From a bacterium (GTDB lineage Bacteria > RBG-13-66-14 > B26-G2 > WVWN01), in contig JAZGGY010000102.1 of assembly GCA_036480675.1 (NCBI GenBank), forward strand, positions 1 to 37,278: a stretch of DNA of 37,278 nucleotides. Direction: 5' to 3'. Below the pieces are notes generated by a model, which was not told the DNA's origin, searched no databases, and saw only the letters and a list, made by a program, of their open reading frames with translations. The translations under genes and the position numbers were made by a program. This document shows, piece after piece, positions 24,201-34,343 of this stretch (position 1 is its first letter; every line of letters starts with the position of its first letter).

Positions 24201-24672
24201 CCAGGCCGACGTCGACCGCATCCGGGAATGGGAATCGGTAACGGAGGAGAACGTGCCCCGCCCCGAGAACACGAAAGCCCTGGAGATGATATACGGCCTG
24301 GAACCCACCTACACGGTTACGTCCCGGCTCGACCTCGCGGCCCGCGGCGAGGTCTCGCGACGGCACGAGGAGTACAACGGCGCTCCCACCCACTTCAAGG
24401 GCACGAGGGTGAAGCCGGAGGCCACCTACCGCCTGACGGAATCCGGCGTCGCGAACGCGTGGTACGACCGGACGGAGTACGACGTTTCGGGCTACAGCGG
24501 GTCCGAGACGGTGCTGCTGCGCATCCCGGGAGTAACGCACAAGTGGGAGGCCAGCGTAAATAAGGGCGTAGGCCGATACGTTACGCTGATCTTCACGTAC
24601 GACGGCGAGAAAAAACCCGACGTGGGAGAGACGCGGCACCGGGGCCGAATAGACTTAAACATATACTTCTAA
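21223..24672 (+). CDS. large predicted outer-membrane beta-barrel protein, possibly SprA/Sov-like (T9SS translocon family) at about half the canonical length
   Basis: 1149-aa ORF with a signal peptide (RRRLLLTTGLLAAAALA) and Tyr/Asp/Arg-rich amphipathic beta-strand composition. The C-terminal beta-signal is GRIDLNIYF. Two copies of a ~50-aa module occur (aa 61-109 and 289-342: G-S/T-E-T-V ... DY-x-h-DYD-x-x-T-h-T ... VV-D/E-F/Y-x-Y). Stretches such as DFNQSLRLSIRGNVGDVKITGEISDQD and RLTGIKGEAF resemble my recollection of the Flavobacterium SprA N-terminal region. That homology is from memory and untested. Confidence 0.55.
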   Translation: MAGYPRRRLLLTTGLLAAAALADSLGAAEEPRWHETLAAARESFRIMELATGADYELPHKFLFVGSETVRVGGDVWERGRDYRLDYDAGTLTVLAAPPYAGPMVVEYEYLPFLQAEDYRAALEGEDEAEALERLEEAAAAPSELDVTGSKTFTVTAGNAEGTDFNQSLRLSIRGNVGDVKITGEISDQDLPLEEGGATKEIAAVDKIYVRVEGRHLAGTFGDYDAAISGRRFADYQQRLTGIKGEAFYPTWGADAYGARALGRFASNEFYGVDGIQGPYQLSARDDDDIIVLPGTETVWLNGSKLKENENNDYVVDYDLATITFTVRRPISAEDRIVVDFQYTTEEYQRNFFGGEAEGHFAGGAVNVAALYLHEEDNRARAFFGLDDYYRKLLEGAGDDQERARVVALDENGEIIYEYVGEGQGEYTRQWDPVEGKYVYVYVGPGNGDYMPRMILLPFPKRQSLFDVNAVIAPARIITVEAEGATSDFDANTFSTVSDRDNGGLAGSAAATVRLDALEPLERVGKLEVRHVVERRDTRFRNLGREDGVVFLQRWDLDDEVAGLAHPPGYKLYETTVTERPVPSLTASGTYGAIRQQYVGLSANGYSGQRGKRAAASLSWEPERWPHVAYDFNHVRRHGPRYTGAFETDDESVAKSAFTDDENTRREQSGEVSYSVWRLSPYVRVYDKKRRADYEIDGAPDEGTLEQELEVGTGVRPAAGWNVRFGHTAGRGELVEDQAYVPHYRKNEEHVATTYDAPGLIDLSAEYTKIIKDFAPADVADVDSDLSLLEFYYTPLERALALRTRYELNSIQELEREEIFEVARDGDGDYRREVDPKNPNRYVYIYDPDDPEAIYIKTYRYTGRAYRALEPDLTVSLAVLPYRYNDVRGRDAERNPWLDAAAADLYVHARNSSTSPRRLAIATLQDLLAADALDSSLEQRYTLTILPVNRRLTGWARYSVKDDLDRTVASRQRRRWRTSRYGEVVAEPVPRLTVQADVDRIREWESVTEENVPRPENTKALEMIYGLEPTYTVTSRLDLAARGEVSRRHEEYNGAPTHFKGTRVKPEATYRLTESGVANAWYDRTEYDVSGYSGSETVLLRIPGVTHKWEASVNKGVGRYVTLIFTYDGEKKPDVGETRHRGRIDLNIYF

Positions 24673-26537
24673 TGCTAAAGAGTTGGGCCATACTAGTCGT
24701 ACTCGCTCCCGCCGCGGCGGCCACGCCGGCGGCCGCCGAGGTGGCGGTCGAGGGCAACGTCGCATTCGGCGACGCCGAAATCGAGGCCGCGGCGTATCGG
24801 GACGGCGCCGTCGACGCCGGCGCCGTGGAGCGGCTCTATCTACGCGCCGGGTACCTGGACGCGCGCGTCGAGCTGACCGTCGAAGAAGGCGTCCCGCCGA
24901 CGCTCGCGATAACGGAGGGAGCGCGGTACCGCGTCGCCGCGCTCGACGTGGACAACGATTCGCCGCTCAGCCGCGACGAAGTAGCAGCGTTCATCCCGTT
25001 CGGCCCGGGCGACGCGCCGTCGCCGCCCGACCTCCGGGAGGGTTTAATCGCGCTGTTAGCCAAACTGGCGGATCGGGGATATCTGCGCGCCGAAGCGGAA
25101 TACGCCGTAACCGACGCCGGCGCGGCGCGGGTGGACGTCGCCGTGGCGGTGCGCGCGGGCGAAAGGTACGCCGCCGGCGAGATCCACCTCGTCGGCGTTC
25201 GCCGCCGAGACGAGGAGGCCATACGCGAAAACCTCGAAACCCGGCCCGGCAAGCCGCTGCACGAGCGGGCCCTCGCGCGCGACCTCCTCACCATCATCGA
25301 CTACTATCGCGAGCGCGGCTATCCCACGGCCTCCGCCCGTCCCCGCGCTTTCGAGCTCGCCGAGCGCTACAAAGAGATTGACTTCGCCGTAATAGTCGAG
25401 CCGGGCGACAAAGTAACCGTAACGGCCATCGACGTCGTCGGAAACCGCCGCACCCGCGACGGCGTCATCCGGCGCGAAATTTTAACCGTCCCCGGCGAAC
25501 CGTACGACATCGAAAGACTGCGCAAGAGCGCGCGCCGGATATATAACCTCAAATACTTCGAGGCCGAGCCCGACGTCGAGCTGGTCGACGCCGAGGCGGG
25601 CCGGCTTCGCGTAACGGTGGTGGAGCGGCCGACGTACCGCGTTACCGGCGCTTTGGCGTACGAGCCGCGGCAAGGCGAGACCGCCGCGGCCGTGATAGGC
25701 GAAATGGACGCGCGCCTCGCCAACCTCTTCGGCACCGGCCGGGAGCTCGACGCCCGCTACCGCCGCCTGGCCGTCGAATCGACCGACGCCGCGGCGGCGT
25801 ACTACGAGCCGTGGATAGGCGGCGTCGACCTCTTCGCGCAGCCGAGCGGCCTTTACAAAGAGCGGGTAACGTACCGCAAGGCGACCGGCGAGCTCGCGCT
25901 CGGCACCCATCCCCTCGTGGACTTGACGGTGGCCGCCGGCGGCGGCTTCGACCGGGTGTGGACGGAAAACGCGAGCCGGAAGTACAAAGTCTTCACCTGG
26001 GCGACGTACGACAGCCGGGATTACTTCGACAACCCGCGGCGGGGTTGGCAAGCGTTCGGCCGCGTGGAGCTCGGCGTCAAGGAATACCTGGCCGACGGCT
26101 TCCGGGAGCGGGTGCCGCGGCTGAAGCTCGACGCGTGGCGCTTTTGGCCCACGACTCGCAACCAGGTCCTCGCGGCGCGCGGCCGCGCCGAGGGCTTCGT
26201 CTCGCAGCGGACGAGTCTGGACGAAGTTTTCCCGCTGGGCGGGTACGCCGACCTCCGCGGCTTCAAAGAGGAGCAGTTCCTAACGGACCGCTACGTTCTC
26301 GCGACCGTCGAGTATCGTTTCTTGACCGGCCGCGGCAGCAGGCTGTTCCTCTTCGTCGACTCGGCCTATCGGCACCTCAAAACCGAAAAGACGTTCGACG
26401 AGGGTTTCAACGTGGGCTACGGGGCCGGCTTCCGGGCGGCGACGGCCGTCGGAACGTACGGCGTAGACTACGGCCTGGCCGCCGGCGATAACCCCCAAGA
26501 GGGTAAAATCCACGTCTCCATAACGCAGGAGTTTTAA
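24672..26537 (+). CDS. Omp85-family protein (BamA/TamA-like, short POTRA array)
   Basis: 621-aa ORF whose ATG overlaps the upstream stop (TAATG at 24670..24674). It has a signal peptide and POTRA-like units (IHLVGVRRRDEEAIRENLETRPGKPLHERALARDLLTIIDYYRERGYPTA; IDVVGNRRTRDGVIRREILTVPGEPYDIERLRKSARRIYNLKYF). The C-terminal surface-antigen barrel ends GKIHVSITQEF. At this length there is room for about 3 POTRA domains rather than the 5 of canonical BamA. Confidence 0.87.
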   Translation: MLKSWAILVVLAPAAAATPAAAEVAVEGNVAFGDAEIEAAAYRDGAVDAGAVERLYLRAGYLDARVELTVEEGVPPTLAITEGARYRVAALDVDNDSPLSRDEVAAFIPFGPGDAPSPPDLREGLIALLAKLADRGYLRAEAEYAVTDAGAARVDVAVAVRAGERYAAGEIHLVGVRRRDEEAIRENLETRPGKPLHERALARDLLTIIDYYRERGYPTASARPRAFELAERYKEIDFAVIVEPGDKVTVTAIDVVGNRRTRDGVIRREILTVPGEPYDIERLRKSARRIYNLKYFEAEPDVELVDAEAGRLRVTVVERPTYRVTGALAYEPRQGETAAAVIGEMDARLANLFGTGRELDARYRRLAVESTDAAAAYYEPWIGGVDLFAQPSGLYKERVTYRKATGELALGTHPLVDLTVAAGGGFDRVWTENASRKYKVFTWATYDSRDYFDNPRRGWQAFGRVELGVKEYLADGFRERVPRLKLDAWRFWPTTRNQVLAARGRAEGFVSQRTSLDEVFPLGGYADLRGFKEEQFLTDRYVLATVEYRFLTGRGSRLFLFVDSAYRHLKTEKTFDEGFNVGYGAGFRAATAVGTYGVDYGLAAGDNPQEGKIHVSITQEF

Positions 26538-26588: not shown

Positions 26589-27362
26589 ATGGCGCGCCTC
26601 TTCCAGATATTAGGGGTGGCAGCGGCTTTCTTCGTCGGCGCATTCGCCGGTAACTTCTACCACCTCGTCGTACGCCGCGGGTCGGGCGGCCGCTTCCACG
26701 TAACGCTGCCGCCGGCCTGCCCCTCCTGCGGCCGGGCGGAACGACGTATATGGATGCTGCCCATACTCTGGTATCCGTTACTGCGGGGTCGCTGCCCGGG
26801 CTGCGGCTTCCGCTACCACAAAAACCTCGTCCTGTTGGAAGCGACGGGCGGCGCCGTCGCGGCGTTGGCGTTCTACTACTACGGCTTTTCCTTCGCGTTC
26901 GCGACGACCTTCGCTTTCTGCTTTTTCTTCCTCTTAAATTATTGGGTGGACTTCCGCTACGGCGTCCTGGTGCCGCAGCTCTATCTCCCTGCGCTCGCCG
27001 CGGGGCTTGGGCTTTCTTTTTTACCCGGGCCGCCCACTCCCGCCGGCGCTCTCGCCGGAGGCGTCGTGGGCGGCGGCCTGTTGTTGGCGGCGCGTCCCGG
27101 CCGCGGCCTATTCTCCGAGAACGCGCGCGGCGCCGAACGCCAGCTCGCGTGCGTAGCGCTGGTCGGGGTTTTCCTGGGATGGCAGAGCGCGCTGTTCGTT
27201 CTGGCCGCCGCGGCGATCGCGGCGTTGGTCCTGCCGTTGGTCGCGCGCCGCGTGTTCGGCGGCGACCCGGAAACGGCCTTCGGATTCGCGGTCCTCGCCG
27301 CGGCGTTAGCGCTGGCTTTCTACCACGCCGACATAACGTCCTGGTACTTCCGCATCCGCTAG
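26589..27362 (+). CDS. prepilin peptidase (A24)-like membrane protein, divergent
   Basis: 257-aa polytopic ORF. It has the N-terminal four-Cys motif typical of PilD (CPSCGRAERRIWMLPILWYPLLRGRCPGCGFRYHKNLVLLE). A first-Asp-like site is present (NYWVDFRYGVLVP). The second catalytic G-x-G-D-x-K motif is not visible (RGAERQLACVALVGVFLGW instead). Confidence 0.6.
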   Translation: MARLFQILGVAAAFFVGAFAGNFYHLVVRRGSGGRFHVTLPPACPSCGRAERRIWMLPILWYPLLRGRCPGCGFRYHKNLVLLEATGGAVAALAFYYYGFSFAFATTFAFCFFFLLNYWVDFRYGVLVPQLYLPALAAGLGLSFLPGPPTPAGALAGGVVGGGLLLAARPGRGLFSENARGAERQLACVALVGVFLGWQSALFVLAAAAIAALVLPLVARRVFGGDPETAFGFAVLAAALALAFYHADITSWYFRIR

Positions 27363-27436: not shown

Positions 27437-28711
27437 GTGGGTACGTACGAGCTCATAGTATACGGCTGCCAGATGAACGACTACGACGGCGAGAAGCTGG
27501 CCGGCATAATGGAGGAGGCCGGCTACCGGCCCGCGCCTCCCGGAGACGTCGCCGACGTCGTCTTGGTTTACACCTGCGCCGTACGGGAGTCAGCCACGAC
27601 CCGGGCGTTAGGCCGTATCACGTCGCTCGCGCGGTACAAGAAGCGCAAGGCGGATACCGTCATCGGCGTCGGCGGTTGTTGGCCCGCGGTCGAGAAGAAC
27701 GTCATCGAGAGCTCCTGCCCCCACGTCGACTTTACCTTCGGGACGACAAACCTGGAAGACGTCCCCGCGACGGTAGCGGGCATCCGCGGGCAGGCCGCGT
27801 CGCCGCTGCCGGACGAGATTCGGCTTCGCCGGACGGCCTGGCCTCGAGCCAACGTATCGATTATGCGGGGTTGCGACAACTTCTGCGCCTATTGCGTCGT
27901 GCCGTACGCCCGCGGCCCGGAGGTTTGCCGCCCGATCGACGACGTACTGCGCGAAGTGGAAGAGCTGGTCGGGGCCGGCTTTAAGGACATCACGCTCATA
28001 GGTCAGAACGTAAACTCGTACCGGCACGGCGTTACGTCCTTCGCGGAGCTTCTCCTGAAGGCCGACGCGCTGTGCGACGGCGTCTTCCTCCGTTTTACCA
28101 CCAATCACCCCCGCGACGTCAACGACGAAACGGTGGCCGCGCTCGGCCGGTGCCGCAACGTCGCCCGGCACCTCCACCTTCCGCTGCAGAGCGGCTCGGA
28201 CGCCGTATTGCACGCGATGAACCGCGACTACGACGTCAGCCGCTACCTCGACGTCGTCTCGAAGGTGCGGAAAGCGGTCCCGGGTATCTGCTTGACGACG
28301 GACGTACTGGTCGGCTTCCCCGGCGAGACGGAGGACGACTTCGAGGCTACGCTCAGCGTCGTCGAGCGCGTACGCTACGACAGCGCGTACGTCTTCATGT
28401 ACTCGCCTCGAGCCGGGACGGCGGCCGCGGCGCTGGCCGACGACGTGCCGCGTCCCGAAAAAGTGCGCCGCCTACAAACGGTCGGCGCGCGGCAACGCGC
28501 CATTGCGCTGGAAATAAACGAAGGGATGGTGGGGAGTGAACAACCGGCCTTAGTGGAAGGTCCGAGCCGCAAGAAGGCCGGCGAATACGCCGGCAGGTTG
28601 AGCGAAAATAAAATCGTAAATTTCGCGGGCCGGGCGCGCCCGGGCGAATTCATACGCTTAAAAATTACGAAGGCTTCGTCTTGGACGCTAAGAGGCGAGC
28701 CGGCGCCGTGA
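27437..28711 (+). CDS. miaB: tRNA-i6A37 methylthiotransferase MiaB
   Basis: 424-aa ORF with a GTG start. It has the UPF0004 N-domain (VYGCQMNDYDGEKLAG ... VLVYTCAVRE), the radical SAM site RGCDNFCAYCVVPYARG and a C-terminal TRAM domain (ALVEGPSRKKAGEYAGRLSENKIVNF...IRLKITKASSWTLRGE). Confidence 0.92.
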   Translation: MGTYELIVYGCQMNDYDGEKLAGIMEEAGYRPAPPGDVADVVLVYTCAVRESATTRALGRITSLARYKKRKADTVIGVGGCWPAVEKNVIESSCPHVDFTFGTTNLEDVPATVAGIRGQAASPLPDEIRLRRTAWPRANVSIMRGCDNFCAYCVVPYARGPEVCRPIDDVLREVEELVGAGFKDITLIGQNVNSYRHGVTSFAELLLKADALCDGVFLRFTTNHPRDVNDETVAALGRCRNVARHLHLPLQSGSDAVLHAMNRDYDVSRYLDVVSKVRKAVPGICLTTDVLVGFPGETEDDFEATLSVVERVRYDSAYVFMYSPRAGTAAAALADDVPRPEKVRRLQTVGARQRAIALEINEGMVGSEQPALVEGPSRKKAGEYAGRLSENKIVNFAGRARPGEFIRLKITKASSWTLRGEPAP

Positions 28712-28779
28712 CCGAACGCGCGAACCGTTCCGCCACGACGCCGGCGTCGTTGGGTCCAACTCGAGCCCCGAAAGGGGCG

Positions 28780-28941
28780 TTATCCTTTCCTCGCCCGCCG
28801 CGTTAGAAACGCGTGTACGATAATTGCCGCCGAGACGGTATCCACGGCCAGGAGTTGACAGAAGATGAGCACCTCGCTCTGCGGGTGAGGTAGTGCGATT
28901 AAGTGGACCAACCGAAATATCACGAAAAGCAACGTCGCCAT
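28780..28941 (-). CDS. possible small hydrophobic protein (53 aa), last gene of the rSAM operon
   Basis: Below the track's apparent length floor (nothing under 60 aa is listed). ATG 28939..28941 has GAGG 6 nt upstream and lies 36 nt after the methyltransferase stop. It encodes MATLLFVIFRLVHLIALPHPQSEVLIFCQLLAVDTVSAAIIVHAFLTRRARKG, with two hydrophobic segments. Third-position GC is lower than in neighbouring genes, so it may be spurious. Confidence 0.25.
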   Translation of the reverse strand: MATLLFVIFRLVHLIALPHPQSEVLIFCQLLAVDTVSAAIIVHAFLTRRARKG

Positions 28942-28977
28942 AGATTACCTCGCCTTGTCGTGGTTACCGTTAACTTC

Positions 28978-29619
28978 TCAACTGGCTTTTCTAGCCGCCG
29001 CGAAGAATATGGGTAAAAAGTAACACCGCTCCCCTTTAGATATCGCCGCCCCGCGCGCCCGCGCCGCAACGCGTAAACTCTCGCCGGCCGCCGATGCCCC
29101 TACCAACCTCTCCAGAAGCTCGAACTCCTTTTCTTCCTCCTCGGCCCAACGGGACGTGGTCCACGCCGAATTCAATACGCCGAAGCGGAAGACGTCGAAG
29201 CCGGCGCTGCTCAACAGGGCCGGGAGTTTCCGGCCCGCGGCCGGGTCGCCGCCACGCCGCCGCACCGCCTCCACGACGTCGTCGCGGCTCGAGGCCGCCG
29301 GCGGATAGTCGATGGCGCCCTCGTAATCCGGTTCCGCCAGCGCGACGTACACGCCCCCGCTCTTCAAAACCCTCTCCGCTTCCCGCAGGAACGCCGCCGG
29401 TTCGGCAAGCCAAGTTATCACGAACGCCCCCACCGCGGCGTCGAAAACGCCGTCGCGGAAGGGCAACGCCGCGGCGTCGCCGGCGACGAAGGCCGCGCCG
29501 CTCCCCCGGGCGCGCGCCGCCGTCAACGCCTCGAGCCTCCTGTCAATCCCCACCGCCACTTTGGCCGCGCGCGCCGCCAGCTCCGCCGTCACGACGCCGC
29601 TACCGCAGCCCACCTCCAA
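28978..29619 (-). CDS. class I SAM-dependent methyltransferase (start unresolved; coding signal continues upstream to 29757)
   Basis: The track ORF starts at TTG 29617..29619, directly at motif I (L-EVGCGSG), followed by VAGDAAALPFRDGVFDAAVG and LKSGGVYV. The 46 codons upstream (29620..29757) are open in the same frame and look like the missing N-terminus, but contain no ATG/GTG/TTG. See findings. Confidence 0.8.
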   Translation of the reverse strand: MEVGCGSGVVTAELAARAAKVAVGIDRRLEALTAARARGSGAAFVAGDAAALPFRDGVFDAAVGAFVITWLAEPAAFLREAERVLKSGGVYVALAEPDYEGAIDYPPAASSRDDVVEAVRRRGGDPAAGRKLPALLSSAGFDVFRFGVLNSAWTTSRWAEEEEKEFELLERLVGASAAGESLRVAARARGAAISKGERCYFLPIFFAAARKAS

Positions 29620-29757
29620 TATCCGCCCGAACCGTCGGAAGCTGAACTGCCGGTAGAGCTCGCGCCGGTGCGCCTCGTACCACGCCGCCTGGCGGACTTC
29701 CTCTTCGGGCGTAAGGTACGGGCCGGCGTCGCCTGCTATCTCCCATCCCTCCTTGCG

Positions 29758-31128
29758 CTACGCCGCGTTGGACGCGGCGTCCGGGCAACAGAAAACTCTC
29801 TCGTACTTGACCGACAGCGGGCACCCGGCGCCGCATATTTCTAAATCCGGGCACTCCCGACATCGGGCGGGCGCGTACTCCCGGTCGCGTATCTCGCGAG
29901 CCAATTCGTTGTTGTAGATCGTGTCCCAGTCGTCGGCGAGTATATTCCCCATAGGTTGGTAAAACGACTGGCACGGTATGACGTCGCCGTTGGGCTCGAC
30001 GCACATGTTGTACTTGGCCGCGGTGCACTGTTTGACGCCCAGGTCCATCGTCAGCGGGTTGAAGCGGCAGTACTGCGTCGGCGTATACCACATAAAAGTC
30101 ATGTCGTTGGCGGCGCAGGCCGCGGTGAAGCGGCTGAGGATGGGCCCGAGCGCGCCCTCCGGAATGCCGACGTCAACGTCGCGCGCGCTGCCGGAGTTAA
30201 TAATGCCGTTGGCCGCCACGTGCTCGACGTCCAGCGTCGCCAAAAACGCCACCAACTCCTCCACGTCGTCGACGTTTTCGGTGGTGAGCGTCGTGTTGGT
30301 CAACAAGTATACCGGGCTTGCGACGGCGTTCTCGATGCCGGCGACGGTTTCGTTGAAGGCGCCGTCGGCGCCCACCATCTTGTCGTGGGTTTCGGGTACG
30401 GAGGAGTGAATGGTTATTTGGACGTGGTCGAGGCCCGCCGCGGACAGCGCGTCCATATATTCCGCGTCCTTCAACTTGCGGCCGTTGGTCAACAGGCCGG
30501 TGACAACGCCCAACTCCTCGGCGTATTCGACCAATTCGACCAGGTCCGGGTGCTGCGTCGGCTCGCCGCCGGTGAATACCACGTGCGGAATGCCGAGCCC
30601 CCAAACCTTGGCGATGACGCGCTTGAGGTCCTCGGTGCTGAGCGTCTCGCCCGCGCGCGCGGCCTCGTTGTAGCAGTGGGCGCAGGCGTTGTCGCACCCG
30701 TACGTGAGCGCGAGGTCCATCCGGTAGGGCACGTCGACGTCGATGGAAAAGGGGTCGACGCGCTCGGCGCCCAGGTACGATATGGGACACCGCTCGTCGC
30801 CGCGCGCCATCATTTCTATCGTCTCGCGCAAGCGGCGGAGGTCTTCCGCCAGCTCCTTTTTGCCCACGCGGTAGCGCTTGGCCATCGTCTTGACGATGCG
30901 GTCGTCGGGCCACTCCTCGATTACGTAGCGCGCCATCTCGGCGCCGGTCTGGTTGAGGTGCAGGATGCGAGCGGCATTTATCATCAATATGCCGTCGCCC
31001 CCCGGGTTCAGGCGGAGGTGGAGGCGAACATGGAGTTCCGCGTCGTCGCGCCGGAGGTGGTATATCCCCGCCTCGAGCGGGACCTGCTTCGCCAGGAACT
31101 TGTCGTATATCGTCTTTCCGATACCCAT
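29758..31128 (-). CDS. radical SAM/SPASM-domain peptide maturase with N-terminal PqqD-like (RRE) domain
   Basis: The ORF track gives 29758..31245. I place the start at ATG 31126..31128 (MGIGKTIYDKF...) because the extension is an Arg-rich out-of-frame reading of the upstream gene's Cys-Ala repeat. The rSAM site is LTYGCDNACAHCYN. The SPASM motif is Cx2Cx5Cx3C (CRECPDLEICGAGC), with upstream Cys residues (QCTAAKYNMCVEPNGDVIPC). The N-terminal ~100 aa are PqqD-like (ILHLNQTGAEMARYVIEEWPDDRIVKTMAKRYRVGKKELAEDLRRLRETI). Confidence 0.9.
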   Translation of the reverse strand: MGIGKTIYDKFLAKQVPLEAGIYHLRRDDAELHVRLHLRLNPGGDGILMINAARILHLNQTGAEMARYVIEEWPDDRIVKTMAKRYRVGKKELAEDLRRLRETIEMMARGDERCPISYLGAERVDPFSIDVDVPYRMDLALTYGCDNACAHCYNEAARAGETLSTEDLKRVIAKVWGLGIPHVVFTGGEPTQHPDLVELVEYAEELGVVTGLLTNGRKLKDAEYMDALSAAGLDHVQITIHSSVPETHDKMVGADGAFNETVAGIENAVASPVYLLTNTTLTTENVDDVEELVAFLATLDVEHVAANGIINSGSARDVDVGIPEGALGPILSRFTAACAANDMTFMWYTPTQYCRFNPLTMDLGVKQCTAAKYNMCVEPNGDVIPCQSFYQPMGNILADDWDTIYNNELAREIRDREYAPARCRECPDLEICGAGCPLSVKYERVFCCPDAASNAA

Positions 31129-31163
31129 ATATAATCTACGACGGGATTTGAGGCCGACCGCGC

Positions 31164-32777
31164 CTAACGGCCGCCGCCGGCGCAGGCGCAGGCGCACCCG
31201 GCGCAAGCGCATGCGCAAGCGCAGCTGCTGCCGCCGCCGCTCCAACCGCCGGACGAACGCGCAGGCGGCGGGTTAGTGGTCGCGGTAACTTTGCCGGTGA
31301 ACGATTCCACCTTCGACACCACGCCGTTCGCGATGCCCTCCACGCGCGTCACGACGGCGTTGGCGAAGCTGGCGCCGGGGAGCGTGGGCATATCGAGCGA
31401 AACGCCCTTGGGCCCGACCCCGGCCGCGGGGGCGACGCGTCCCCACCATACGGGCCGCGGTACGTCGTATCCCACGAAGACGGTGCGGGCGTGCCCCTCG
31501 AAGTCGTCGTCCAGCATCGTCCACTCCAGGCCGTTCGTAAACTCCTCGACCTTGACGTCGGGGGTACCGGCCTCCTCCACCAACCGCCAGGCGGTCTTCA
31601 CTATCTTGCGGTAGTATTCGACGGTCTCGCGGTGGGAGAAGCCCTTCATCTTCTTCTCCACGGCCTTGATCAGCGACACCAACATGTCCTGGAGCTTCTT
31701 CTCGCCCAGGGTCCCGTCTTTGTCGAGCGCGGCGACCAACTCTTTCTCGTACGGCCTTAGGCCGTTCTCTTTAAAAGGTAGCTTCTCGAGCTTCAGCGGC
31801 TCCTGGGAGACTATGGAAAGCGCGCCCTTCTTAATCAAGCCGAAGAGGATCATGGTCAGGATTACGTTCAACGGCCGTTCCATCAGGATCGCGGCTTCAG
31901 GGGCGGTAAGGCCGCGCTTAATCCCCACGCCCTCAACCTTGGCCTTGGGCGACAGGTACCTCATGCGCCGACGCCGTTTATTGATTATGCCAAAGACGGC
32001 GATAAGTACGAAAATAGTAATCGGTATCAAGCATCCGCAGAATTGCGCCGCAAAGCCCACGAGGCCTGCGAAGAAGTCGCCGATCCACCCGAACTGCGGC
32101 GGCGACCGCACCTCCGCCACCGCGTTCCGCGGGAACGATATGCCGAAGTAATACTGCTCCGACGGCGACGCTTGCTGCCAATCCCAGACGTAATAGACGC
32201 GGCCATCCCTAACGAACATCTGCGTCGGCTCGCCGCCCTCGTCCTCGTGCCAGCGCGTTTGCTCCCCCGTTACGCCCGGCGGGAAGACGAAGACCATCGT
32301 GAGGTGGGTCGTGCCGGTGGTGAAATCGGAGCCGAACCAGGTGGGGCTGAAGACGGCCGACGCGTACGTCTCGTCGGCCGAGTCCTCGAAGACCATATGG
32401 TAATTACGGCCGTTAACGTGGAGCGTAGCCGCGTCGCCGGATCCAATTTCGTAACCGGAGAGCGGTATCTCGACGCCGACGTCGATGTACTCCGAGGGCC
32501 TTATGGTATACAGCGGATGGCCGTCGACGTCGGCGGTAATGGAGTCGAGGTCGTAATCGTTCGACGGAAAGCCCACGTCGACGATATCTATGGGGTCGCC
32601 GGCGGGGGTATTGCGAAAGGTTATCTTGTAATCGACGTCGAACGAAGAATCCTGGTTGACGGTTACCGTCACTACCTCGCGCGGGACCTCAAAGTAGTAA
32701 TCCTGCGCCGCGACGGGCCACGGCGTTACCGCCGCCGCCAAATATAAAACTATTGTCGCGCCACGTTTAAGACCCAT
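31164..32777 (-). CDS. DUF2207-like membrane protein with C-terminal poly(Cys-Ala) tail
   Basis: 537-aa ORF with a signal peptide (LYLAAAVTPWPVAAQ). The ~220-aa N-terminal domain opens with a DUF2207-like pattern (YYFEVPREVVTVTVNQDSSFDVDYKITF). A long hydrophobic span (FFAGLVGFAAQFCGCLIPITIFVLIAVFGII) is followed by KRRRRMRY and a soluble C-terminal half. It ends ...PPPARSSGGWSGGGSSCACACACAGCACACAGGGR*. The family call is from memory of its architecture. Confidence 0.8.
   Translation of the reverse strand: MGLKRGATIVLYLAAAVTPWPVAAQDYYFEVPREVVTVTVNQDSSFDVDYKITFRNTPAGDPIDIVDVGFPSNDYDLDSITADVDGHPLYTIRPSEYIDVGVEIPLSGYEIGSGDAATLHVNGRNYHMVFEDSADETYASAVFSPTWFGSDFTTGTTHLTMVFVFPPGVTGEQTRWHEDEGGEPTQMFVRDGRVYYVWDWQQASPSEQYYFGISFPRNAVAEVRSPPQFGWIGDFFAGLVGFAAQFCGCLIPITIFVLIAVFGIINKRRRRMRYLSPKAKVEGVGIKRGLTAPEAAILMERPLNVILTMILFGLIKKGALSIVSQEPLKLEKLPFKENGLRPYEKELVAALDKDGTLGEKKLQDMLVSLIKAVEKKMKGFSHRETVEYYRKIVKTAWRLVEEAGTPDVKVEEFTNGLEWTMLDDDFEGHARTVFVGYDVPRPVWWGRVAPAAGVGPKGVSLDMPTLPGASFANAVVTRVEGIANGVVSKVESFTGKVTATTNPPPARSSGGWSGGGSSCACACACAGCACACAGGGR
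31179..31223 (-). repeat. coding hexanucleotide repeat (7 x NGCGCA on + strand) encoding (Cys-Ala)4-Gly-(Cys-Ala)3
   Basis: The + strand reads GGCGCA GGCGCA GGCGCA ccc GGCGCA AGCGCA TGCGCA AGCGCA. On the coding strand every Cys is TGC, while the Ala codons vary (GCT, GCA, GCT, GCC x4). Confidence 0.9.
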
Positions 32778-32806
32778 GTCTATTTACCACGTGCGGCGAG
32801 GGCGAT

Positions 32807-33211
32807 TTACCATTTCGGTTCTTCTTCGATTTCGTATGACGTCCCGCAATAAGGGCAGGTTACCACCACGGCCCCGGCCTTGACGTCGATATTGTCTTTC
32901 GCCAGCGTGGCCCCGCAGGATTGGCACTTCAACCGCTCGAGCGACAGATCGCCCGTTAAATCTATTTGCTGGACGATGGTCTGCGGTTTCTCGGCCCGGT
33001 ACTTCTTGTAGGAGCGGTACATCAGTACGCCGGCGCCGGCTATGAGTAACAGGCCGATGACGTTAAGGCATACGCCCACGCCCACCCGGCTGCCGCCCTG
33101 CTCGCCGGCCTCGGCGGCGGTGGAGGCCATAATCCACAGAACGCCGAAGAAGATAAGCACCAGCGCCAAAACTACCATCGGTACGCCGAATATGCAGCCG
33201 CTCAATTTCAT
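32807..33211 (-). CDS. membrane-anchored zinc-ribbon protein (function unknown)
   Basis: I prefer ATG 33209..33211; the track uses TTG at 33217. There are two hydrophobic helices (VPMVVLALVLIFFGVLWIMA; VCLNVIGLLLIAGAGVLMY). A C-terminal CxxC-N22-CxxC ribbon follows (LKCQSCGATLAKDNIDVKAGAVVVTCPYCGTSY). It lies 29 nt upstream of the DUF2207-like gene. Confidence 0.7.
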   Translation of the reverse strand: MKLSGCIFGVPMVVLALVLIFFGVLWIMASTAAEAGEQGGSRVGVGVCLNVIGLLLIAGAGVLMYRSYKKYRAEKPQTIVQQIDLTGDLSLERLKCQSCGATLAKDNIDVKAGAVVVTCPYCGTSYEIEEEPKW

Positions 33212-33257
33212 AGTCAAACGCCGCCGTATTTATGACCTAAAATGCACTTATTACGTA

Positions 33258-33286
33258 ATAATATAGTATCTAAATGTCGATTGCAA
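33258..33286 (-). promoter_or_regulatory. candidate promoter of the zinc-ribbon/DUF2207-like/rSAM operon (TTGCAA-17-TATTAT) with overlapping palindrome
   Basis: The reverse strand reads TTGCAA (33281..33286), a 17-nt spacer and TATTAT (33258..33263). The region is markedly AT-rich. A perfect 14-bp palindrome TTATTACGTAATAA (33248..33261) overlaps the -10 element. Confidence 0.4.
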
Positions 33287-33312
33287 GTATAATTCGTACC
33301 CGCGAAGTCTAG

Positions 33313-33337
33313 ATAAAAACCCCCGCGGCCGCGGGGG
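33313..33337 (-). terminator. rho-independent terminator of the acidic-protein gene
   Basis: The reverse strand reads GCCCCCGCGGCCGCGGGGG followed by TTTTTA, 25 nt after the TAA at 33363..33365. Confidence 0.8.
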
Positions 33338-33362
33338 CTTATCTTCGGATTTAAACAGGAGC

Positions 33363-34310
33363 TTACCTGTTTTGATAGCGGTCGATTATCGACCTGAAGA
33401 GGTCGACCGCGGCGGCGAGGGTGATATTACGCCTCTCAATGCGGACTTTGTTGCCCACGACGCCGATTCCGATGAATATCTCGGCTTCCTCTTCCGCCGC
33501 CGGTTCCTCCGCCGCAGGAAGCGCGAGTTCAGGTACCGCTTCAGCGGCCACGCCGACCGGGACCACCTCGGGCCGCGGCGGCATAGGCGGCGCTGCGGGC
33601 GGTACCTCGCGGAGTTCTTCCTCTATCGTCGCTTTGATCGCCTCGGCCTCTTCCTCCCTCAAAGTAGGCTCGCTGACAGCGGCCGGCTCGGCCGCGGCGA
33701 CTACTTCCTCCTCTAGAAGCGGTTTCACCAGTTCCTCGAGCGGGGCTTCGGCGCCGGGTCCAACCTCTATCTCGAGGCCGGTGGGAACTGCTTCGGCCGG
33801 AACCTCTTCCTCCACCGGCGGCGCTTCCGCCTCCACGGCGGGCAAGTCGGCAGCATCCCACGGTTGGGGCGCTATTACTTCGCCCACGCCCTCCAGGTCG
33901 AAGTCCGTCAATTCCAAACCGGCGAGCGCTTCTTCGGCCGGCTCCTCGACGGGCGGCGGCTCGGGTCCCGGGGGCTCGAGGAAGGCCGCGGCCTCGGCCC
34001 CAGACGCGAATTCGGGCGGCATCTCGGGCGGCGCCATAAACGGCTCCTGGACCGCCTCCGCCTTCTCCTCGTCCAAAGGAATAGCCGACGGCTCGGGCGG
34101 CGCGGGGAAAGAGCTCAAATCGAAATCGCTCTCCGGCGCCTCGATAGCTTCCGGCCCGGGGGCGAGCGGTTCGTCGACTTCGTCGAGCGAAGTCTCGAAC
34201 TTATCGAATTCCCCGCTGGCGATCCTCTCTTTGAGCCGCCGCGCGCGCTCCTCGTTCCGCCTCTTTATAGCCTCTATAGGATCTTCTATTTCCTCGGCCA
34301 TGGGACCTAC
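33363..34310 (-). CDS. acidic Glu/Pro/Ala-rich low-complexity protein (function unknown)
   Basis: I prefer ATG 34308..34310, because AAGGAG lies 8 nt upstream and the track's TTG start at 34319 sits just upstream of and overlaps that SD. The N-terminus is a charged helix (EDPIEAIKRRNEERARRLKERIASGEFDKF). About 230 aa of E/P/A-rich sequence follow. The C-terminus is a short ordered-looking segment (IFIGIGVVGNKVRIERRNITLAAAVDLFRSIIDRYQNR). The gene has its own promoter-like site and terminator. Confidence 0.7.
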   Translation of the reverse strand, partial: VGPMAEEIEDPIEAIKRRNEERARRLKERIASGEFDKFETSLDEVDEPLAPGPEAIEAPESDFDLSSFPAPPEPSAIPLDEEKAEAVQEPFMAPPEMPPEFASGAEAAAFLEPPGPEPPPVEEPAEEALAGLELTDFDLEGVGEVIAPQPWDAADLPAVEAEAPPVEEEVPAEAVPTGLEIEVGPGAEAPLEELVKPLLEEEVVAAAEPAAVSEPTLREEEAEAIKATIEEELREVPPAAPPMPPRPEVVPVGVAAEAVPELALPAAEEPAAEEEAEIFIGIGVVGNKVRIERRNITLAAAVDLFRSIIDRYQNR

Positions 34311-34343
34311 TCCTTTCAAGCCGTTTTATCCTAATTCAAATGC

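Follow-up and report, generated by a model that had tools for sequence, protein, structure and literature searches.

A conserved radical SAM cassette points to modification of the Cys-Ala tail of a membrane protein

The chemistry of radical S-adenosylmethionine (SAM) enzymes that carry a SPASM domain and depend on a RiPP recognition element (RRE; RiPP, peptide synthesized on ribosomes and modified post-translationally) is known from little else than natural-product precursors that are short and hypervariable. In sactipeptide and ranthipeptide systems, such as SkfB/SkfA, CteB/CteA, AlbA/SboA and PapB/freyrasin, an RRE-radical SAM enzyme with a SPASM (or twitch) domain lies beside a Cys-rich substrate, a peptide of less than about 100 aa; in freyrasin, repeated short Cys motifs are processed several times by one enzyme. 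Here, we describe a cassette on the minus strand of contig JAZGGY010000102.1 (positions 28780-33286 of the window, that is, of the whole 37,278-nt stretch analysed), in which the Cys-rich sequence next to such an enzyme is instead the C-terminus of a conserved membrane protein of about 550 aa. Our comparisons point to a real, strongly conserved and undescribed protein-tail modification system, where the same machinery seems dedicated to the invariant 19-residue tail of a large membrane protein, a different biological use.

On the minus strand, the cassette runs from a zinc-ribbon membrane protein (ZnR) through the Cys-Ala-tailed protein (TAIL), the radical SAM enzyme (rSAM) and a methyltransferase (MT) to an open reading frame (ORF) of 53 aa, with gaps of 29 nt between ZnR and TAIL (32778-32806) and 35 nt between TAIL and rSAM (31129-31163). 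An initial annotation of the window had proposed that the tail of TAIL is the substrate of rSAM, and the gene coordinates, both gaps and the GCDNACAHCY, CRECPDLEICGAGC and KRRRRMRY motifs that it had read were all found in place (Table 1). Labels of the form L### and P#### denote, respectively, loci and homologous proteins within our analysis.

The Cys-Ala tail and the linked radical SAM enzyme

The tail is far more conserved than the protein that bears it. The sequence CACACA(CA)GCACACAGGGR closes all 120 best homologues of TAIL, which are 42-95% identical and come from Zixibacteria, Coatesbacteria, Chloroflexota and others. When 50 sequences are aligned, column identity averages 31%; residues C521-R537 form 17 consecutive invariant columns and C519-A520 are at least 90% conserved, while F493, T501, N502 and P503 are invariant in a leader-like region further upstream. 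Entropy was 0.03 bits for the core, 1.08 for leader-like residues 490-505, 1.42 for the cytoplasmic domain, 1.49 for the linker and 1.63 for the beta-sandwich. The linker that follows T-N-P is mostly 13-20 aa long (median 17, range 11-60) and is composed largely of Gly (35%), Ser (28%) and Pro (12%), so that the succession of leader-like motif, linker and core appears precursor-like, resembling the layout of a RiPP precursor.

Gathering candidates by shared words might favour identical tails, and we therefore ran a second homology search that used no word index and left out the tail, comparing TAIL residues 1-505 by phmmer with 1.84 billion cluster representatives (50% clustering). This search returned 842 matches at E ≤ 1e-3, and the family is present in at least 120 species-level genomes. 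Among the best 150 of the 842, 71 carry the canonical tail, 54 close variants and 25 neither; the 125 with a tail end in (C-small)n-GGG, mostly in ...GGGR, the variants including (CA)2G(CA)4GGGR, (CA)5GGGR, CACACACAS... and C[AV]C[AV]C[AV]S repeats. The 25 untailed matches are mostly truncated or frameshifted fragments, and one full-length homologue, P0377, is alone in having no Cys tail; its contig is 1.8 kb long. Essentially all full-length relatives thus carry a (Cys-small residue)n-GGG(R) tail, even when the search is blind to it.

A degenerate-DNA scan, with one genome per species, yielded at least 122 tails in at least 120 loci. In 122 of 122, the Arg is followed by the stop codon. These 122 tails are encoded by 122 distinct DNA sequences, whose third codon positions are 41% identical, indicating that selection acts on the peptide and not on a DNA repeat. 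All the tail-bearing ORFs that were long enough to judge belong to the family of about 550 aa, and none is a short peptide. Separately, P0379 and a stretch near position 62 of L168 correspond to 'proteins' ending, for example, in MRLCLCLCRLRLCLRR, which is the tail DNA read in another frame; such out-of-frame strings are gene-calling or frameshift artefacts and could hide family members.

To count neighbours of the tail loci (rSAM, ZnR and MT) we used targeted tblastn, because six-frame ORF clustering over the 120 loci was confounded by antisense ORFs in G+C-rich DNA and by single-linkage merging. Among the 117 listed tails with at least 600 nt of 3' DNA, rSAM lies directly downstream on the same strand in 108, and two further tails are tandem TAIL duplicates preceding a single enzyme gene. 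The survey from the enzyme side comprised 80 metagenome loci with rSAM homologues (43-88% identity), 76 of them with sufficient upstream DNA, and a TAIL gene precedes the enzyme gene in 63 of these 76. Adjacency of enzyme and Cys-Ala-tailed protein is therefore the rule in both directions, whereas the initial annotation had named the lack of any such adjacency among maturase homologues as a refutation of its proposal. A conventional short precursor, which it had failed to find in the gaps, was likewise not seen here: no ORF of up to 100 aa with at least four Cys occurs within 28700-33400, and no small Cys-rich ORF was found in the DNA covered at the 13 enzyme loci that have no adjacent TAIL.

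The gene set is also kept when its order changes, as in L201 (ZnR-rSAM-pseudo-rSAM-TAIL-MT) and in L202 (TAIL-TAIL-rSAM, with MT on the other strand). Tandem TAIL genes, each with its Cys-Ala tail, precede one rSAM in L074, L087 and L202, an arrangement that may be taken to resemble multi-precursor RiPP clusters. The cassettes compared have no conserved protease, transporter/exporter or additional tailoring enzyme. Carriers belong to Chloroflexota, Zixibacteria, Coatesbacteria, Fermentibacteria-type lineages, Aminicenantes, Acidobacteriota, Planctomycetota, Clostridia and Asgard archaea, and in the last (Hodarchaeota, Heimdallarchaeota and Promethearchaeota) the genes keep the order ZnR-TAIL-rSAM-MT, as in the window. 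Two carriers, Ornatilinea apprima P3M-1 (TAIL accession WP_075064617.1) and Leptolinea sp. HRD-7, are cultured. Public annotation of the cassette is limited to 'hypothetical protein' and 'radical SAM protein'. One Planctomycetota metagenome-assembled genome contains two unlinked TAIL genes, one without rSAM (L021) and one with it (L058).

The enzyme has the parts expected of a peptide maturase. Pfam hidden Markov models (HMMs) identified Radical_SAM (PF04055, 6.9e-27) and SPASM (PF13186, 3.7e-10) domains, and the SPASM Cys, like those of the CxxxCxxC motif, are invariant in 35 homologues, except C376, conserved at 90% or more, so that both motifs recognized at the outset were upheld; the set of Cys is that expected for two auxiliary clusters (Cx9-15Gx4C ... 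Cx2Cx5Cx3C ... C). The PqqD-like N-terminus, which had been read as an RRE, was borne out by the homologues (35/35 matching PqqD at E<0.01, best 3.2e-8) and by an AlphaFold2 model (predicted template modelling score 0.80), with strands 21-58 and then three helices (60-109) ahead of the barrel, whereas the window protein on its own fell below the Pfam cut-off. The best Protein Data Bank (PDB) folds found with Foldseek for the full-length enzyme were the RRE-bearing maturases SkfB, SuiB and CteB, over 414-461 aligned columns that include the N-terminal domain; anSME and the epimerase EpeE are further structural neighbours. By sequence, the closest solved relatives are PqqE and SkfB, and GDGT-MAS was also among the matches. 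On the enzyme side, rSAM thus shows the features of RRE-dependent radical SAM/SPASM peptide maturases.

None of the named families claims the enzyme. It reaches no curated equivalog cut-off of NCBIfam release 20 among PqqE, MftC, AlbA, SkfB, StsB, ACGX-system, GeoRSP, NirJ, AhbD and TIGR04053. Its top scores are for TIGR04053 (116.3 against a cut-off of 395 bits), then PqqE (115/381), NirJ2, AhbD and MftC (101/265), followed at lower levels by StsB (91/625), SkfB (78/300), ACGX (67.7/400) and AlbA (63/850).

For rSAM to act on the tail, the latter should be in the cytoplasm. The AlphaFold2 model of TAIL (predicted local distance difference test, pLDDT, 82.5 overall) comprises a signal-like helix, a beta-sandwich (28-216), hydrophobic helices (230-271), a winged-helix and helical domain (277-448), a long helix (468-501) and a disordered tail (508-537). 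Lys and Arg accumulate behind the membrane span, together averaging 5.3 after it and 2.1 before it across 50 homologues; TAIL is therefore predicted to lie N-out/C-in, with its last 50 or so residues in the cytoplasm. The earlier suggestion that KRRRRMRY, directly after the span, marks a cytoplasmic C-terminal half agrees with this charge bias and with the predicted topology.

A proposed tail modification and its alternatives

From these comparisons, the cassette is probably dedicated to modifying a full-length membrane protein at its C-terminal tail. The proposal first made, with the tail as the substrate of rSAM, stood up to the computational tests that could have contradicted it and seems rather likely; we infer the enzyme-substrate relation from the conserved linkage. 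TAIL would be anchored N-out/C-in, its last 50 or so residues acting as a built-in precursor in the cytoplasm, made up of a leader-like FTGxVTxxTNPPP motif, a flexible Gly/Ser linker and the core (CA)3-4-G-(CA)3-GGGR. The enzyme, itself cytoplasmic, could reach the tail, given the cluster of charge after the span and the disorder of the tail in the model; it would dock through its N-terminal RRE domain and process the seven Cys-Ala units using the SAM cluster and two SPASM auxiliary clusters. The products might be several small-ring S-C thioether crosslinks from Cys thiols to Ala or Gly carbons, as made by sactipeptide and ranthipeptide synthases, on which MT would then place one or more methyl groups. 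ZnR and, in Anaerolineae, an inactive Cys-poor rSAM paralogue could be accessory or scaffold partners. The modified tail would stay on the protein, and retention on TAIL is most likely because the cassette has no protease or exporter.

Several observations weigh against this proposal. The PqqD score of the window enzyme (19.2 bits, E 0.0016) is below the Pfam cut-off of 23.4. NCBIfam scores are nearly equal across very different chemistries (PqqE, NirJ2, AhbD), so that sequence gives no chemistry. Covariation between leader and RRE was sought among the canonical, (CA)5 and (CA)2G(CA)4 subfamilies, one of which lacks TNPPP, and none was seen, RRE identity to the window enzyme being about 30% in every subfamily. 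The topology of TAIL rests on prediction, Cys-x-Cys repeats are typical metal ligands and, in the flanking DNA covered, no partner was seen in 13 of the 76 enzyme loci and 7 of the 117 tail loci.

Those 13 loci, which keep rSAM and in nine cases also MT, and the metal-ligand character of the repeats would suit an unmodified string of thiolates, metal- or Fe-S-binding or redox-active in the manner of metallothionein, with TAIL as a membrane scaffold or metal donor and with rSAM and MT acting elsewhere, on another part of TAIL, on ZnR, on a lipid or on a small molecule. The carriers are, moreover, all anaerobes, where free thiols are stable, and ZnR is also a metal-binding module. Yet the RRE fused to the enzyme indicates a peptide substrate, for which no other candidate was found; metal-binding strings usually vary at x, whereas the Ala, the internal Gly, the GGG and the terminal Arg are here invariant at 30-45% overall identity; and the leader-linker-core layout resembles that of a precursor. 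We consequently regard an unmodified string as unlikely. Much further down the scale we place the possibility that TAIL is a sacrificial scaffold, from whose C-terminal residues a small sulfur-rich cofactor is built and then excised, as PQQ from PqqA or mycofactocin from MftA. The best HMM matches include PqqE and MftC, the former also being the top solved relative by sequence, and the conserved GGGR-COOH may recall the C-terminal cores of those systems; but the cassette conserves no peptidase, transporter or further tailoring enzyme, a conserved three-domain membrane protein of about 500 aa would be expensive for a single use, and conservation of the remainder of TAIL implies that it has a function of its own. 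As for a coincidence or artefact, with a low-complexity or G+C-rich DNA repeat lying among unrelated neighbours, the tail DNA of the window is certainly G+C-rich and repetitive, but one peptide is written in 122 DNA versions with synonymous sites saturated, the tail is kept in low-GC Asgard genomes, and the two-way linkage is conserved and survives rearrangement; a negligible chance remains for coincidence, and a DNA-repeat artefact is ruled out by the codon analysis and the linkage.

The other alternative is nested inside the preferred reading: it accepts the tail as the substrate, and only the thioether step is in dispute. The enzyme could instead produce formylglycine or dehydroalanine, epimerise Ala or Cys, methylate C or S together with MT, or couple a lipid through a thioether. 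NCBIfam scores do not separate SPASM enzymes of differing chemistry; SuiB (C-C crosslink), anSME (Cys oxidation) and EpeE (epimerase) all occur among the structural neighbours, and the lipid-coupling GDGT-MAS among the sequence matches; and a methyltransferase belongs to the conserved set. Against this, the anSME target motif, C/S-x-P/A-x-R, does not occur in the tail; anSME and EpeE, to our knowledge, have no RRE; of the three full-length structural matches that come closest, two, SkfB and CteB, are thioether synthases with Cys as their target; and the invariant small residues between the Cys would fit crosslink acceptors. A different chemistry is, on balance, possible but doubtful. We favour thioethers because of the activity of SkfB and CteB, because strictly invariant small residues fit either acceptors or tight threading through the active site, and because Ala is a known sactionine acceptor, as in thuricin CD; even granting that the tail is the substrate, we hold this assignment tentatively, at nearly balanced chances.

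Three other candidates were rejected. An anSME-type reading does not agree with CACACACAGCACACAGGGR, where the C/S-x-P/A-x-R motif is missing, nor with an enzyme that has an RRE, which anSMEs lack. An anti-phage defence system was considered, but PADLOC gave generic viperin-core and methyltransferase similarity only. Nor does the cassette qualify as a natural-product RiPP cluster, because the candidate substrate has 537 aa and there is no short precursor, protease or exporter.

What the modification would be for is a matter of speculation: the receptor-like layout of TAIL, with a beta-sandwich outside and a winged helix and modified tail inside, is suggestive of signalling, or else of a redox or metal site tethered to the membrane. 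In its most ambitious form, which we think possible although rather improbable, the proposal is that the cassette builds a protein-derived prosthetic group on a DUF2207-like, receptor-type protein, namely a membrane-tethered, crosslinked and methylated poly-thioether/thiolate that may bind metal or be redox-active. If so, this group would be conserved almost residue for residue from Asgard archaea to at least nine bacterial lineages of anaerobes, and protein-borne radical SAM modifications would gain a new class, whose role would lie in housekeeping or signalling instead of in natural products. Solving the system would provide a first functional lead on DUF2207-like proteins and could reveal new Cys-Ala chemistry; the proposal is testable, as cultured carriers exist and the substrate fragment is short.

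Features of the cassette and its surroundings

The initial annotation had suggested searching the four proteins for several families, DUF2207 (PF09972) among them. The TAIL protein of the window matched no Pfam or NCBIfam family at E<0.1, DUF2207 included; among 50 homologues, weak DUF2207_C matches in 11 (best E 0.0044) and a DUF2207 match in one leave a remote relationship, of shared architecture only. UniRef names the Ornatilinea orthologue 'DUF2207 domain-containing', a domain whose function is unknown (PMC10457818). With Foldseek, the beta-sandwich retrieved generic folds only, those of M1 aminopeptidase N-domains and of ribophorin I/Ost1 (E about 1e-7, TM about 0.25), the match to ribophorin I/Ost1, of the oligosaccharyltransferase, spanning the whole chain with a very high root-mean-square deviation; a function for TAIL based on its N-terminal domain was discarded, such matches being uninformative. 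Homologues of about 765 aa (P0037, P0038, P0041 and P0059) have an extra N-terminal domain, with PF06439 in P0059.

In 76 of 83 loci, ZnR precedes TAIL on the same strand, and it is also present in Asgard loci L066 and L083, in line with the earlier suggestion that this membrane protein is a partner. MT was found in 37 of 50 loci with sufficient downstream DNA, either right after rSAM or one extra gene later. The open stretch noticed at 29620-29757 is present; it begins immediately behind the TAG of the rSAM gene and shares the frame of that gene. ATG, GTG and TTG are all missing over 46 codons, yet the N-terminal residues of MT that the stretch encodes (GPYLTPEEE..AAWYEAHRRELYRQ) are conserved in relatives. 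An ATA at 29737-29739 stands 8 nt after AAGGAGG in the window, and the codons at the equivalent position are ATA in L121 and ATT in L063, while L059 has an ATG overlapping the rSAM stop (TAATG). Synthesis of MT therefore likely initiates at this ATA, either as a rare non-canonical start or by termination-reinitiation.

The extra gene before MT, typical of Anaerolineae (for example, L044 2118-3278, minus strand), encodes an rSAM-like paralogue that keeps the RRE-like N-terminus without the CxxxCxxC motif, and may be a pseudo-enzyme partner; the L044 copy is additionally devoid of SPASM Cys, another copy occurs at L201 (2045-3367, plus strand), and there is none in the window. Downstream, the initial annotation had the cassette meeting the convergent miaB gene (27437-28711): miaB does lie beyond, but the contact is not direct, since the conserved 53-aa ORF intervenes directly after MT. 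This ORF, preceded by a purine-rich stretch before its ATG, is kept at the equivalent position in L059 (85% identity), L063 (81%) and L122 (46%); it has no Pfam match and is a possible clade-specific fifth gene of the cassette. An accessory role is probable for the 53-aa protein, as it is for ZnR and the pseudo-rSAM.

The promoter-like and terminator signals described upstream are both present, as consensus matches only, and a search of the whole window with Rfam for a riboswitch or other RNA clue gave no match at gathering score. Beyond the terminator hairpin, which separates it from the cassette, lies a gene for a highly acidic, Pro/Glu/Ala-rich protein of 318 aa with no Pfam match (33363-34319, minus strand), found in the same position in L059 and L121 at about 65% identity. 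On the other side, a gene for a 257-aa membrane protein (26589-27362, plus strand), with a prepilin peptidase A24 N-terminal domain (1.3e-9) and, weakly, an A24 peptidase domain, sits between a BamA-like gene (24672-26537) and miaB.

Table 1. Positions of cassette features in the window, with the basis for each
Feature	Position	Strand	Basis
Promoter-like site TTGCAA-17-TATTAT, upstream of cassette	33258..33286	-	Consensus scan, 9/12 matches; consensus matching only
G+C hairpin (CCCCCGCGGCCGCGGGGG) then TTTTTAT on minus strand; terminator of upstream 318-aa gene, upper cassette bound	33320..33337	.	Consensus match only
ZnR, 136 aa, two hydrophobic spans, C-terminal CxxC...CxxC zinc ribbon ending EEPKW	32807..33217	-	Hydropathy; weak zinc-ribbon HMM matches
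TAIL, 537-aa single-pass membrane protein, remotely DUF2207-like, invariant Cys-Ala tail	31164..32777	-	Ends ...SSGGWSGGGSSCACACACAGCACACAGGGR
TAIL residues 26-226, predicted extracytoplasmic beta-sandwich after signal-peptide-like N-terminus	32100..32702	-	AlphaFold2 pLDDT >95, Foldseek
TAIL residues 227-268, hydrophobic span (helices 230-245, 250-271), then KRRRRMRY	31974..32099	-	AlphaFold2, hydropathy
TAIL residues 269-448, predicted cytoplasmic winged-helix and helical domain (GIKRGLTAPEAAILME motif)	31434..31973	-	AlphaFold2, invariant residues
TAIL residues 490-505, VESFTGKVTATTNPPP, leader-like motif, candidate RRE docking site	31263..31310	-	Conservation
TAIL residues 506-518, variable Gly/Ser/Pro-rich linker	31224..31262	-	Alignment
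TAIL residues 519-537, CACACACAGCACACAGGGR, invariant core, proposed modification site	31167..31223	-	Conservation
rSAM, RRE-radical SAM-SPASM enzyme, 456 aa from ATG	29758..31128	-	HMMs, AlphaFold2 model
rSAM residues 20-110, PqqD-like RRE domain (strands 21-58, helices 60-109)	30799..31071	-	PqqD HMM, AlphaFold2
rSAM C145-x3-C149-x2-C152 (GCDNACAHCY), [4Fe-4S] cluster motif	30673..30696	-	Read from sequence; invariant in 35 homologues
rSAM residues 368-436, SPASM: C368, C376, C386, C423-x2-C426-x5-C432-x3-C436 (CRECPDLEICGAGC)	29821..30027	-	Pfam SPASM
MT, class I SAM methyltransferase, probable non-canonical ATA start 29737-29739	28978..29757	-	Methyltransf_11 1.4e-21
53-aa hydrophobic/membrane ORF (MATLLFVIFRLVHLIALPHPQSEVLIFCQLLAVDTVSAAIIVHAFLTRRARKG)	28780..28941	-	Between MT and miaB, directly after MT

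Comparison with known systems

That the gene set corresponds to no named system, as the initial annotation had supposed, is consistent with our searches: every named equivalog cut-off was missed, and no description of the tail or the cassette was found in Pfam, NCBIfam release 20 or the literature searched, which covered full text but left most subscription journals outside. The resemblances are nevertheless instructive. Membrane proteins of the DUF2207 type (PF09972/PF20990) share with TAIL the extracytoplasmic beta-sandwich, the span, a winged-helix-like cytoplasmic region (GLTxxEAA...) and a low-complexity C-terminal tail; ordinary DUF2207 tails, however, are Gly-rich and are not known to carry a Cys-Ala string, and the window protein has no Pfam match.

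Among the enzymes, PqqE with PqqD and PqqA, and MftC with MftB and MftA, provide the top HMM and PDB sequence matches and are likewise RRE-dependent SPASM enzymes acting on a C-terminal core, but our cassette lacks a Glu/Tyr or Val-Tyr core as well as a peptidase and the genes of a downstream pathway, and its scores are far below the cut-offs. The ACGX-repeat system (TIGR04340), a family on the HMM list of rSAM, also combines a SPASM enzyme with a substrate of short tandem Ala/Cys/Gly-rich repeats; it differs in having short stand-alone peptides with another repeat unit, and rSAM scores 67.7 vs 400 bits for it.

QhpD, which acts on QhpC of quinohemoprotein amine dehydrogenase, and anSME, which acts on sulfatases, are SPASM enzymes that modify Cys in a functioning protein. 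They are therefore precedents for protein-borne SPASM modification, but their substrates, motifs and contexts are different: QhpC, a small subunit located in the periplasm, has Cys-to-Asp/Glu crosslinks, anSME has no RRE and needs C/S-x-P/A-x-R, and neither amine dehydrogenase nor sulfatase genes accompany the present cassette. The sactipeptide and ranthipeptide systems share the type of enzyme and the Cys-rich substrate encoded beside it, but here there is no leader protease or exporter and no equivalog cut-off is reached. Finally, the cores of natural products are hypervariable, whereas the core described here is invariant across phyla and domains.

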